A DNA stretch of 64,000 nt. Source: Escherichia coli O127:H6 str. E2348/69 (GTDB lineage Bacteria; Pseudomonadota; Gammaproteobacteria; Enterobacterales; Enterobacteriaceae). The stretch lies in the NCBI RefSeq assembly GCF_000026545.1, contig NC_011601.1. One strand, written 5' to 3'. Positions 35,348 through 61,634 of this stretch are shown here, in pieces. Made by a program: the position numbers and the translations under genes. Position 1 is the stretch's first letter, and the number at the start of each line of letters is the position of its first letter. The notes under the pieces were generated by a model. That model was not told the DNA's origin. It saw only the letters and a list, made by a program, of their open reading frames with translations, and ran no database searches.

Positions 35348-35364
35348 ATTACCTTACAGGTAAT
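35348..35364. promoter_or_regulatory. Phage operator-type palindrome ATTACC-N5-GGTAAT (site j)
   Basis: ATTACCTTACAGGTAAT between the divergent tailspike gene and the small plus-strand gene. Confidence 0.5.
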
Positions 35365-35440
35365 TTACATTTCATGCTGGATAGTCCTGATATCTTCTGC
35401 TACTGTATGTTTTATACAGTGATTGCATGGAGAAGAAGAG

Positions 35441-35701
35441 ATGCAACGGCAGTATCACCATCCGCTGGAAGAAGGATTTGAGGAAAGAATACACACGCCG
35501 GTAGGCGTTAGATCCCTGGTGGAGGAATCGCACCTGATGAAGTTGCTGCGGGAACTCGATAAAGATGGCTTCAATGTTGATGGGCCACTTGCTGAACTGG
35601 TTGCTCTTGTGAACTACGTCACAAGTTCTCAAATGACCATGCAGGATCTGCAAACTCATCTCGATTACTGTGCGGAACAGTTACGTAAGCAAACCACTTA
35701 A
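35441..35701 (+). CDS. Small acidic protein, candidate antirepressor or regulator
   Basis: ATG at 35441 with GGAGAAG ribosome-binding site; 86 aa; operator site and LexA-like dyad upstream. Confidence 0.55.
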   Translation: MQRQYHHPLEEGFEERIHTPVGVRSLVEESHLMKLLRELDKDGFNVDGPLAELVALVNYVTSSQMTMQDLQTHLDYCAEQLRKQTT

Positions 35702-35702
35702 T

Positions 35703-35729
35703 GAAAAATAAAAGGCCGCTATTGCGGCC
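35703..35729 (-). terminator. Intrinsic terminator ending the internal-virion-protein operon
   Basis: GGCCGC-TATT-GCGGCC hairpin followed on the minus strand by TTTTATTTTT. Confidence 0.6.
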
Positions 35730-35731
35730 TA

Positions 35732-35743
35732 GTGACATGTCAC
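35732..35743. repeat. Palindrome GTGACATGTCAC (copy 1)
   Basis: Perfect 12-bp palindrome directly 5' of the terminator at 35703-35729. Confidence 0.5.
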
Positions 35744-35750
35744 ACTCATG

Positions 35751-35891
35751 CTATGACAAACCTATGTACCCTGCTATACCAGATAATATTAAAACAACTG
35801 CGACGGCAAATTCCCCATCTTCAATGATACATTTACGGTTCATTACGACAAGCGCGACAAGTGCCAACACAACAAGAATTATAACAATCAT
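35751..35891 (-). CDS. Small hydrophobic protein (46 aa)
   Basis: ATG at 35891 with AAGGA ribosome-binding site; product MIVIILVVLALVALVVMNRKC...; below the ORF-track cutoff. Confidence 0.45.
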   Translation of the reverse strand: MIVIILVVLALVALVVMNRKCIIEDGEFAVAVVLILSGIAGYIGLS

Positions 35892-35901
35892 TTTCGCATC
35901 C

Positions 35902-60073: not shown

Positions 60074-60088
60074 GGTAAATACCTGTCG

Positions 60089-60289
60089 TCAGCTTGAATG
60101 TTGCAGGCTGGCTTCGGCCATGAGCTGCTTTATTTCTGCCTGGCGGCGCAGGCTTGTGTTGATGGCGCACGTAACGCAGTGCCCGTTATAAACATAACGT
60201 TCACTGTCATGACCATGCTTACACTGCTTGCCGGTGTAATAACGCTTAAGACCTGCCTTTGCAGCGTCAATACGAGTAATAATCTCCAT
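60089..60289 (-). CDS. Small Cys/His-rich protein at the cII-equivalent position
   Basis: 66-aa ORF containing CKHGH...HCVTC, between the cro-like and O-like genes. Confidence 0.45.
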   Translation of the reverse strand: MEIITRIDAAKAGLKRYYTGKQCKHGHDSERYVYNGHCVTCAINTSLRRQAEIKQLMAEASLQHSS

Positions 60290-60436
60290 TGCACAACCTC
60301 ATTACCGTTTACTATTACGATGATTTTGATGCAGGAAGAAAAAAAGATCAACCGTATATGGTTTTTTATTACCAGAAAGGTGTTTTATGCAGGAAGGAGC
60401 CGCCATGGTATGACGGCATTGATGGGTTCAGAGGGA

Positions 60437-60670
60437 TTATCGGTCGTAGAAGAAGAGCACTAATTCAGGTTTAGACTTTGTCCATTCGCGGGAGCGACAC
60501 GCTTTAAAAAGACCTTCCATCAGACGCTTACCCGGCATCTTACGGCGACCGGTCAGGTGCGTCTGGATGTAATGACTGGTGGTACCGGCTTCAACTGCAA
60601 ATGCTTCACGCTCATCAGGAGACAGCCCCAGCCAGTGCTTTTTGAAATCAAATTTTTTTTCGTCACTCAT
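60437..60670 (-). CDS. Cro-like HTH regulator
   Basis: 77-aa ORF, first gene of the leftward operon, divergent from the repressor gene. Confidence 0.65.
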   Translation of the reverse strand: MSDEKKFDFKKHWLGLSPDEREAFAVEAGTTSHYIQTHLTGRRKMPGKRLMEGLFKACRSREWTKSKPELVLFFYDR

Positions 60671-60704
60671 ATTTTGCTTATCTCAGCCTGTCTATTCATA
60701 TCTG

Positions 60705-60772
60705 AATTATTACCTTTCTGGTGAAAAAATCAATGATTATTACCATTATGGTAACTTTACCTTTATGGTAAT
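60705..60772. promoter_or_regulatory. OR-like region: three operator palindromes plus leftward promoter
   Basis: Sites at 60709-60725, 60739-60755 and 60756-60772; minus-strand TTGATT-N17-ATAATT promoter at 60705-60733 with the first site in its spacer. Confidence 0.6.
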
Positions 60773-60825
60773 ATTCATTTAAATTTAGAAGGTTAGGTAA
60801 TAATAAATGGGCAAATACAATAGCT

Positions 60826-61422
60826 ATGAAAAGTATTTATGACATAAGACGCAAAAACCTTAACGAAATCATTCGCCGGGATTTCGATGACACCCAGTTA
60901 CGCTTTGCAGAACGGGTGAAGCGTTCGCAGAACCTGGTCAACAGGTGGTGTACTGGTATCAAAAATATCGGACCTAATGCCGCGCGTATCATCGAAGAAG
61001 CAGCCCGCAAAGAAAAGTTCTGGCTTGATGTCGATCACGAACTGGACGCAGTACAGGATGATATCTTTATTCCGGCCACTGAAGATGGAGAATGGACTGT
61101 AGAGAAGCAGGCCGCCGCCACGCTCAATGCCTGGATGAGAAAGAACAGTGAAATGACATCCGAAAAGAAAGTTGCTGTTGCAGCTGGCATTGGACCTGCC
61201 ACCGTTAACCGCATCATGAAAGCGGAAGTCAGCACAACCATCGGCGTTCTTTCCTCCCTGGCGCGCGCGTTCGGGCATGAAGCATACGAGATGATTATTC
61301 CCGTCGGCTCACCTGGTGTTATCGACTATGACCACCGGATGTATGCAGCCCTGCCACAGGAAGAGAAAAACAAGATCACCTCATTCATCAACTTCGTGTT
61401 TGAGCAGAACAAAAGCAAGTAA
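60826..61422 (+). CDS. Prophage repressor (CI-equivalent) without S24 peptidase domain
   Basis: 198-aa ORF divergent from cro-like gene; HTH-like segments; no Ala-Gly / Ser-Lys autocleavage signature seen. Confidence 0.55.
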   Translation: MKSIYDIRRKNLNEIIRRDFDDTQLRFAERVKRSQNLVNRWCTGIKNIGPNAARIIEEAARKEKFWLDVDHELDAVQDDIFIPATEDGEWTVEKQAAATLNAWMRKNSEMTSEKKVAVAAGIGPATVNRIMKAEVSTTIGVLSSLARAFGHEAYEMIIPVGSPGVIDYDHRMYAALPQEEKNKITSFINFVFEQNKSK

Positions 61423-61479
61423 TCCCCCGCCATTCTGACGCTTTACCTGCCCAATGGCGGTAGGCTCACGCCTCACTCA

Positions 61480-61634
61480 ATTACCAAAATGGTAATTTTT
61501 TCTCGTCATACCTATTGACACAATCACTTTTTGATCTGATTATTACCTAAAAGGTAATACAAGAGCGCATTGCTCAGGCAGAAACCACCACTTCGTGGCT
61601 TTCCTGTATCTACTAGTATTACCAAAATGGTAAT
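61480..61634. promoter_or_regulatory. OL-like region: three operator palindromes plus rightward promoter
   Basis: Sites at 61480-61496, 61542-61558 and 61618-61634; plus-strand TTGACA-N17-GATTAT promoter at 61515-61543. Confidence 0.6.

Follow-up and report, generated by a model that had tools for sequence, protein, structure and literature searches.

The Rep protein of Salmonella phage SPC32H is described as a non-cleavable, tetrameric, two-domain HTH repressor that is inactivated by the small antirepressor Ant (Kim et al. 2016, as summarised in PMC9638917 and PMC9986798). As reported in PMC9638917, the DNA-binding pairs of the Rep tetramer come from different dimers, and tetrameric Ant brings about release. 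The tetramerisation domain adopts the TetDloop fold, which has been linked to DNA looping (PMC9986798), and the literature on SPC32H places ant under LexA control. In phage ε15, the sequence record (AY150271.2) carries seven 'protein_bind, repressor, lysogeny' features, situated at terS, gp3/portal, the tailspike gene, three times at OL, and at RuvC, before the gene that follows the replication genes.

The window, a stretch of 64,000 nucleotides from Escherichia coli O127:H6 E2348/69 (NC_011601.1), carries the ε15-like (Uetakevirus) prophage of this EPEC strain, a member of the ε15/SPN1S/SPC32H family whose int adjoins guaA. The gene order, established from nucleotide matches and from the RefSeq annotation compared with ε15, SPC32H and phiV10, is that of Uetakevirus: terS-terL, gp3-portal through gp18, ant, tailspike, conversion, lysis, att-int, the PL operon, rep, and cro-replication. 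The rep gene (60826-61422, plus strand) encodes a prophage repressor of 198 residues which, by protein comparison, consists of two HTH-type domains without an S24 peptidase domain. Over its full length, 193 of 198 residues (97%) are identical to SPC32H Rep (PDB 5D50/5D4Z), and identity to the ε15 repressor gp38 is 98%. The sole NCBIfam match is a weak one to an HTH (HigA-like) model, with no peptidase model matched, and the C-terminal domain corresponds to the tetramerisation domain of SPC32H Rep (5D4Z) and not to a peptidase. An assignment of Rep as a lambda-type CI with a LexA-like, autocleaving S24 domain was discarded on these grounds; Rep would act like lambda CI at OR and OL, yet is outside that family. 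On the minus strand, a cro-like gene (60437-60670; phrog_35, transcriptional repressor) encodes a 77-residue homologue of ε15 gp39.

A 17-bp palindrome, ATTACC-N5-GGTAAT, had been reported in the first-pass annotation at 11 or more sites, and all eleven coordinates hold. Seven copies are exact (35348, 52594, 55942, 58432, 61480, 61542 and 61618; 0.01 expected from 100 shuffles) and three carry one mismatch (58370, 60739 and 60756). Three copies with two mismatches occupy positions kept in relatives, namely 60709 (the third OR site), 55924 (the second terS site) and 60368 (past the cro terminator). A check against chance was carried out with a position weight matrix derived from 44 sites of five divergent relatives and none from the window. 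At a cut-off of at least 10 bits, it returns 14 matches in the window against 0.9 expected under a second-order Markov model: 13 prophage sites and one match at 14855 in host DNA, which is the chance level. All 13 prophage sites are non-coding, although non-coding DNA makes up 8.7% of the prophage; for the perfect TTACC-N5-GGTAA core, 10 of 10 prophage sites are non-coding (0.087^10, about 2e-11). Just beyond the window, at about 68382 and upstream of int, is a 14th conserved site, TATACC-N5-GGTAAT.

Seven relatives were examined (ε15, SPC32H, phiV10, BUCT711, Tyrion, BUCT554 and TL-2011b). TTACC-N5-GGTAA is the most frequent palindrome in all seven, with 8-11 perfect cores each in matching gene contexts, and in the alignments the operators stand out as conserved islands within divergent intergenic DNA. 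The copies distal to the repressor gene are not due to chance: each Uetakevirus examined has them in matching gene contexts, and the ε15 annotators assign them to the repressor. The seven ε15 features occupy homologous positions and are matched one-to-one by the seven perfect sites of the window. The palindrome is a real finding but an already known one, since the ε15 record marks its counterparts as repressor-binding; full-text literature searches on the motif and on repressor-binding sites of ε15 found nothing useful. That the motif is AT-rich and every copy intergenic would suit an origin of the extra copies as chance matches in AT-rich intergenic DNA, or as functionless relics of duplication. 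The probability of such an origin is negligible, given seven exact copies against 0.01 in the shuffles, 13 sites found in the prophage by an independent matrix against 0.9 expected in the whole window, contexts kept in eight genomes with diverged flanking DNA, and spacing fixed in 80 more loci; chance, AT-richness and relics were ruled out by the shuffles, the matrix from independent genomes and the conservation.

The palindrome is thus likely to be the operator of Rep, with its copies forming a prophage-wide set, and very probably the Cro-like protein binds it too. The Cro-like protein is 66-100% identical genus-wide, with an invariant HTH segment, AGTTSHYIQTHLT. Both Cro TTSHYIQTHL and the Rep helix NLVNRW are invariant, though overall Rep identity falls to 42%. 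Differing operators, expected in relatives with 42-65% identical repressors, were looked for and rejected, as the core is unchanged genus-wide; with an unchanged core and invariant recognition helices, no covariation test is possible.

The clusters flanking rep are, as first proposed, the OR and OL of a lambda-like divergent switch, with three sites each. At OR (60709-60772), the operators lie at 60709-60725, 60739-60755 and 60756-60772, in a layout kept in eight genomes, and the 17-bp pair spacing occurs 77 times among 80 IMG/VR loci. The consensus promoter scan gives a candidate PR for cro, TTGATT-16-AATAAT (9/12; 60706-60733, minus strand), the spacer of which is filled by operator 60709-60725, which also overlaps the -10. 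OL (61480-61634) comprises operators at 61480-61496 (about -62), 61542-61558 (over -10/+1) and 61618-61634, the last of which precedes the first PL gene (start 61647); the cluster is homologous to the ε15 'protein_bind repressor' features at 32479-32494, 32554-32570 and 32616-32632. In the candidate PL from the same scan, TTGACA-17-GATTAT (10/12; 61515-61543, plus strand), the AT that ends the -10 also opens the operator. Past the cro terminator, a weak operator with two mismatches (60368-60384), followed by CCATATACGGTTGATC, is kept in position in seven genomes.

A module of the same architecture precedes the 113-aa DUF1064 gene (58370-58448, minus strand). The candidate PM promoter, TTGAAA-17-TTAAAT (9/12 in the consensus scan; 58413-58385, minus strand), lies between an upstream operator (58432-58448), marked as repressor-binding in the ε15 record (35906-35922), and a downstream operator (58370-58386), which also supplies the Shine-Dalgarno sequence. 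Both sites noted in the first pass are therefore present, but they belong to a complete PL-like promoter module rather than being simply two extra sites. The operator-promoter-operator order of PM equals that of PL in 8/8 genomes, and the two modules are paralogous. Paired operators are spaced by 62 bp in 15 of 16 pairs from eight genomes. Among 80 further IMG/VR loci, comprising 67 distinct module sequences, every one of 151 neighbouring pairs is spaced by 61-64 bp (62 bp in 98 and 63 bp in 50). The -35/-10 geometry sets part of this fixed 62-bp distance.

In the terS control region (55924-55965, minus strand), conservation delineates an extended -10, TGTTACTAT (55965-55957), fused to operator 55942-55958, with its last two bases forming the first two of the operator; in five aligned relatives, the terS operator is likewise joined to TGnTA(C/G)TAT. 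The claim that the palindrome sits in a -35/-10 spacer stands at the cro promoter but, as worded, not at terS, where the consensus scan finds no two-hexamer sigma-70 promoter and the conserved extended -10 replaces that placement. A second, degenerate operator (55924-55940) covers the Shine-Dalgarno sequence of terS (ATG at 55922), and the ε15 site before terS (12-27) is marked as repressor-binding. Between the PM operon and the terS operators lies a conserved rho-independent terminator (55976-55995, minus strand), annotated in ε15 and phiV10. Just upstream of terS, a conserved 111-aa protein is encoded that belongs to phrog_536, 'transcriptional regulator', and has no Pfam or NCBIfam family match. 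Between terL and gp3, ARAGORN finds no tRNA such as that of SPC32H; the RefSeq annotation has a pseudogenic tRNA-Gly there.

The head and tailspike units each carry one exact palindrome, upstream of a promoter-like motif common to both. Upstream of the gp3-portal (head/tail) operon, the operator at 52594-52610 is a conserved island in divergent DNA across eight genomes, and its ε15 counterpart (2931-2947, gp3/portal) is marked as repressor-binding. It lies upstream of a conserved promoter-like motif, CATATGTGGTTAAATTGGTAATAATTTAA (52525-52553, minus strand), containing a GGTAAT half-site (52537-52532), and the half-site-centred 17-mer is 62 bp from the operator centre, with zero indels between operator and motif across eight genomes. 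The second palindrome (35348-35364; marked in ε15 at 19895-19911, between the tailspike gene and ant, gp19) lies between the divergent tailspike (ATG 35242, minus strand) and ant (ATG 35441, plus strand) genes. Upstream of the tailspike gene, the promoter scan and conservation indicate a candidate promoter, TTCATA-17-TAGAAT, inside motif CATATAAGGTTTATTGGGTAATAGAAT (35290-35319, minus strand); its GGTAAT half-site is at 35303-35298, and the corresponding 17-mer is centred 50 bp from the centre of the operator, which is again upstream. Neither the head operator nor terS yields a sigma-70 promoter in the consensus scan, so the candidate promoters there rest on conservation and analogy. Simple occlusion cannot account for head and tailspike, where 50-62 bp separate the operator from the putative -10.

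The small plus-strand gene beside the tailspike site, left unnamed in the first pass, encodes the antirepressor Ant (35441-35701, plus strand; 86 aa, 85/86 identical to SPC32H Ant; phrog_450, anti-repressor phrog_1760). Operator 35348 overlaps the candidate ant -35 by one base and so may control ant as much as tailspike. Comparison with relatives reveals a LexA box in the ant promoter (35403-35419, plus strand) that reads CTGT-N9-ACAG, with one extra T. The N9 form is found in the window and in LT827011, whereas CP059840.2 (same strain), MARGA_3, SPC32H and ε15 have the canonical N8; the one-base insertion reflects an error of sequencing or else a genuine defect. In a literature search outside the primary ε15 and SPC32H papers, no prior description was found of the fixed 62-63 bp spacing, the head/tailspike half-site or the operator beside the ant promoter.

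The arrangement of the distal sites bears on what Rep would do there. The sites downstream of cro, at PM and at terS each lie just past a terminator and just before a start codon, those of head and tailspike are single palindromes without overlap with a recognisable core promoter, and the tetramerisation domain of Rep has the TetDloop fold tied to DNA looping (PMC9986798). Such features would fit binding of Rep at distal sites as 'stoperator'-like roadblocks, or as looping anchors that stabilise repression at OR and OL, with no control of a local promoter. We regard this as unlikely, since a full -35/-10 promoter separates the two PM sites in 8/8 genomes, the terS site joins a conserved extended -10 in a register matching that of PL and PM, and the palindrome, unlike stoperators, has no orientation. 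The operator-to-motif distances at gp3 and tailspike, invariant in the aligned relatives, likewise argue for local action.

A further possibility concerns the protein that uses these sites. Lambda-type Cro proteins share operators with their cognate repressors, and here the Cro-like protein is more conserved than Rep, with its invariant HTH fitting the invariant operator core. The distal sites might then serve mainly the Cro-like or another phage HTH protein in lytic growth, perhaps by switching off middle and late units or setting their timing, with Rep confined to OR and OL. This is very improbable: the consensus is matched best by the distal sites, which include four of the seven perfect palindromes; OL, at which Rep has to act, is likewise built of perfect sites; the ε15 annotators ascribe the sites to the repressor; and a lysogen needs its packaging and tailspike genes silent. 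Use of the sites by such a protein and by Rep is not mutually exclusive.

For Rep as the protein acting at the whole set, the layout suggests the following scheme. The three OR sites would govern PR/cro and rep, the three OL sites PL, and the two sites of the PL-like module the promoter of the DUF1064-to-gp49 operon. At terS, two sites would cover the extended -10 promoter and the ribosome-binding site, and single sites would act ahead of the head/tail operon and between the divergent ant and tailspike genes; the weak site past the cro terminator and the one before int, beyond the window, would complete the set. At PL, PM and PterS, the operator begins in the -10 hexamer and covers the start, from which we infer that bound Rep excludes RNA polymerase. 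The second operator of PL and PM, 62-63 bp upstream, may be held by the other DNA-binding pair of the same tetramer or by a cooperative second tetramer. At head and tailspike, only the GGTAAT half-site lies over the -10, and the full operator 62 or 50 bp upstream may anchor Rep and deliver it to this weak promoter-proximal half-site. A single protein would thereby keep all lytic transcription units with a site silent in the lysogen; through Ant all would be released together, and de-repression of ant may add positive feedback.

We infer that Rep occupies the individual sites, that the promoters are assigned correctly, that the tetramer bridges operators and that late units are repressed. Direct repressor control of the late units is plausible from the sequence. 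A 62-bp loop is tight, and bridging by the tetramer is a proposed model. The strictest form of the scheme holds that a single tetrameric Rep directly silences all lytic units and ant through a fixed geometry of 62 bp (50 bp at tailspike), in which its two DNA-binding pairs would bridge a full upstream operator and a promoter-proximal operator or half-site, with no cascade needed. This form is possible but doubtful. The lysis operon of the E2348/69 prophage has no operator within two mismatches, so that 'all lytic units' is not strictly true; an operator is present there in five relatives and absent in TL-2011b. A conserved CATATnnGGTT motif is common to the head, tailspike and lysis units, and a conserved GTGACATGTCAC palindrome occurs at three operon ends. 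Together with the pre-terS terminator and the phrog_536 protein, these elements leave room for an additional late regulator and suggest additional control; the first-pass contrast with a purely antitermination cascade is unsupported.

The EPEC prophage thus carries the well-studied Rep-Ant switch of ε15 and SPC32H, with an operator set that reaches well beyond OR and OL. If Rep directly represses the packaging, head and tailspike promoters, this phage group would offer a compact alternative to the lambda cascade, with the entire lytic programme under one repressor and one antirepressor. The paired operators of fixed spacing would provide a simple system for the study of site bridging by a tetrameric repressor, and in E2348/69 the state of the ant LexA box would decide the SOS inducibility of the prophage.

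Among described systems, ε15 shares the nearly identical repressor, the palindrome and the homologous annotated sites. It differs in its host, Salmonella rather than E. coli EPEC, in its lysis-operon site, which the E2348/69 prophage lacks, and in the tailspike, conversion genes and several early genes, which are different or decayed in E2348/69. The ε15 record has no marks at the imperfect sites: OR, second terS, second PM, post-cro, pre-lysis and pre-int. SPC32H is alike in Rep, in Ant, in an ant gene divergent from tailspike with a LexA box, and in matching operator positions, and differs by its N8 LexA box, against the one-base insertion in the E2348/69 assembly. With lambda, the prophage shares a divergent rep-cro pair flanking three operators, a further three operators at its other early promoter, palindromes of 17 bp, and operators that overlap the -35/-10. 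Unlike lambda CI, Rep lacks a RecA-cleavable S24 domain, and an antirepressor inactivates it; paired operators are 62 bp apart rather than adjacent, and the prophage has extra operators at its middle, packaging, head, tailspike/ant and int units, whereas lambda late genes carry no CI operators and depend on Q antitermination. One repressor with many dispersed sites is known from phage P1 (C1), mycobacteriophage L5 (gp71 and its 'stoperators') and N15/PY54 (CB, with sites outside immB). These repressors directly silence several operons, as proposed for Rep, but the proteins are unrelated to it, and in P1 the late genes are governed via the activator Lpa and not by C1 acting at every late operon. 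The sites of both P1 and L5 are asymmetric, and those of L5 lie inside transcribed regions and are active in one orientation only. Stoperator-type sites were accordingly rejected for E2348/69, where the sites are palindromic, all intergenic and beside promoter-like sequences.

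Exact copies of the palindrome ATTACC-N5-GGTAAT occur seven times in the window (35348, 52594, 55942, 58432, 61480, 61542 and 61618), against 0.01 expected from shuffles. The pattern search adds three copies with one mismatch (58370, 60739 and 60756) and three with two (60709, 55924 and 60368), and all 11 site coordinates of the first-pass annotation are right. A weight matrix was trained on 44 sites from five divergent relatives only, to avoid circularity. At a cut-off of at least 10 bits it finds 14 matches in the window against 0.9 expected: 13 lie inside the prophage, and one (14855) lies in host DNA, at chance level. 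Non-coding DNA, 8.7% of the prophage, holds all ten sites with a perfect TTACC-N5-GGTAA core. Chance matches are excluded as an explanation by the seven exact copies, the 13 matrix matches and the conserved contexts.

The prophage extends from just right of yfgI, at about 28.2 kb, to an integrase gene adjoining guaA, about 4 kb past the window's right end, and its sequence assigns it to the genus Uetakevirus, as an ε15-like podovirus. The repressor, Rep (198 aa, gene 60826-61422), shares 193 of 198 residues with SPC32H Rep, a protein of solved structure (PDB 5D50, 5D4Z). The neighbor of the tailspike gene, previously described only as a small plus-strand gene, is identified as ant (35441-35701), its product being identical to the SPC32H antirepressor at 85 of 86 residues. 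As summarised in PMC9638917 and PMC9986798, Kim et al. 2016 describe Rep binding DNA as a tetramer, with DNA-binding pairs drawn from different dimers, and tetrameric Ant splitting this tetramer, thereby releasing it from DNA. Within the replication-protein gene (59267-60073, minus strand), perfect tandem repeats at 59680-59815 (24 bp x 2.5; 36 bp x 2.4) are probably origin iterons, by analogy with lambda gene O; the 36-bp unit carries GGTAACATTACC, both operator half-sites in swapped order.

Rep identity to the window's protein is 98% in ε15, 97% in SPC32H, 65% in BUCT711, 46% in BUCT554, 45% in Tyrion, and 42% in both phiV10 and TL-2011b, and TTACC-N5-GGTAA is the commonest palindrome in all seven, with 8-11 perfect cores each. 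With one mismatch allowed, the site classes are the same in all genomes compared: three at OR, between the cro-like gene and rep; two or three at OL, by the early promoter PL; one downstream of the cro terminator; a pair ahead of the first gene past the replication genes (DUF1064 or RuvC); a pair ahead of the terminase small subunit gene terS; and single sites before gp3, between the ant-like gene and tailspike, and before int. In alignments, the operators form conserved islands amid divergent intergenic DNA. Neither the Rep segment NLVNRW nor the Cro segment AGTTSHYIQTHLT varies among the relatives compared, and the operator core is unchanged because these reading heads are unchanged. The constancy of the Cro segment would suit a use of the distal sites mainly by Cro, a very improbable reading. 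The operator-like int site, TATACC-N5-GGTAAT, is present some 40-60 bp ahead of the gene in this prophage (L010 42382-42398, about window position 68382, outside the window) and in all seven relatives, and the ε15 record labels bases overlapping it as an integrase arm site. Through this site, int may be under Rep control.

At PL (candidate hexamers TTGACA-17-GATTAT, 10/12), the final two bases of the -10 are the first two of the operator 61542-61558, with a second operator (61480) 62 bp upstream and a third (61618) 76 bp downstream. The sites before the 113-aa DUF1064 gene, the PM module, are laid out likewise: an operator, about 24 nt, cTATTGAAA, 17 nt, and a TTAAAT fused to the second operator, which doubles as the Shine-Dalgarno sequence. 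This layout, kept in all eight genomes regardless of the gene downstream, suggests that PM is another promoter of the PL type under repressor control. In the operon that leads from the DUF1064 gene to terS, RefSeq annotates three partial (pseudogene) CDS (about 56479-56766, 57015-57194 and 57781-57964), pointing to some decay of the accessory early genes. Of 16 operator pairs, 15 are spaced by 62 bp from centre to centre. A further 80 IMG/VR loci encoding Rep relatives (67 distinct module sequences) give 151 neighboring pairs at 61-64 bp (98 at 62 bp, 50 at 63 bp), 77 at 17 bp, which represent the OR pair, and 38 at 75-76 bp, which involve the third OL site. The -35/-10 geometry sets only part of the 62-63 bp distance; what is left is constant, which speaks for cooperative or bridged binding to one face of the helix.

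Before terS comes a conserved terminator (55995-55976) and then TGTTACTAT. This extended -10, whose conserved form is TGnTA(C/G)TAT, is fused to the operator 55942-55958 in the register seen at PL and PM, and a further, degenerate operator covers the ribosome-binding site. From this arrangement, we infer that the repressor would occlude a putative promoter at terS. The gp3/portal and tailspike operators overlap no core promoter and lie upstream of a motif that the head, tailspike and lysis units have in common, CATATnnGGTT...GGTAATA(G)AAT, also given as CATATnnGGTT(N4-5)TG.GTA..AT. It sits 25-35 bp upstream of the gp3 (head operon), tailspike and lysis operon start regions (52553-52525, 35319-35290 and 30227-30195, minus strand), and a related CCATATACGGTTGATC (about 60361-60346, minus strand) follows the weak operator after cro. 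Conserved genus-wide and without a good -35, the motif is a candidate activator-dependent, possibly late, promoter element; a promoter scanner scores the tailspike copy as TTCATA-17-TAGAAT. In the lysis operon of this prophage the motif is present and no operator was found; five of the seven relatives have a site there. RefSeq places a pseudogenic tRNA-Gly at about 53057-53169, between terL and the head operon; ARAGORN found no tRNA there, and SPC32H has a tRNA-Arg in that position.

In the head and tailspike copies, a GGTAAT half-site over the -10 region is invariant. No indel alters its distance from the operator in any of eight genomes; measured between centres, the two 17-mers are separated by 62 bp at gp3 and by 50 bp at tailspike. 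Roadblock or looping roles for the distal sites would accommodate operators clear of any core promoter, and are unlikely beside this fixed pairing with a half-site. The best-supported reading is a prophage-wide Rep regulon, in which Rep would directly occlude PR, PL, PM and PterS, and anchored Rep would be delivered to the weak promoter-proximal half-sites of the head and tailspike promoters; we infer these mechanistic steps from sequence. The 35348 operator also shares one base with the candidate -35 (TTTACA) of the ant promoter, so Rep may repress its own antirepressor too. A LexA box is present at this promoter (35403-35419), as CTGT-N9-ACAG with an extra T within a T-run; the canonical N8 is found in another assembly of this strain (CP059840.2) as well as in E. 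coli MARGA_3, SPC32H and ε15. The N9 box may reflect a sequencing error in a homopolymer; otherwise it is a real variant that would alter SOS control of the prophage. LexA reportedly represses ant, and in SPC32N one base change in the box is said to make Ant constitutive.

Direct gating of the late units, proposed by both the first-pass annotation and the ε15 annotators, is plausible. The accompanying dismissal of a cascade is unsupported: the terS terminator, the CATATnnGGTT motif lacking a good -35, a second palindrome and a phrog_536 protein leave room for a further late regulator. The second palindrome, GTGACATGTCAC, is perfect over 12 bp and has three copies, one of them GTGACACGTCAC, against 0.16 expected (35732-35743, 53812-53823 and 56018-56029). 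It holds the same places in all eight Uetakevirus genomes: between convergent gp18 and ant, after terL, and, ahead of the terS terminator, at the 3' end of the gp49-like gene. The first two directly adjoin a GC-rich terminator hairpin, and the palindrome may be a site for another regulator working at operon ends. The last gene before terS (56026-56364, minus strand) encodes a conserved 111-aa homologue of ε15 gp49 with a Cys-rich C-terminus. It matches phrog_536 'transcriptional regulator', with no Pfam or NCBIfam family found, and is a candidate late regulator.

The operator set is real and, by comparative criteria, functional. The ε15 GenBank record AY150271.2 carries seven features marked 'protein_bind, repressor, lysogeny': before terS (12-27), before gp3/portal (2931-2947), between gp19 (ant) and tailspike (19895-19911), three in the stretch from gp37 to the repressor gene, and before RuvC (35906-35922). 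These are exact homologues of the window's seven perfect sites, so the core observation, late-operon copies included, is prior knowledge for this phage family. What the present analysis adds is modest: it places the imperfect sites, recognises the PL and PM modules as paralogous and their spacing of 62-63 bp as fixed, brings out the half-site in the head and tailspike promoters, and connects the 35348 site with ant. The set itself is already known for ε15 and SPC32H, and the E2348/69 prophage is one more carrier.
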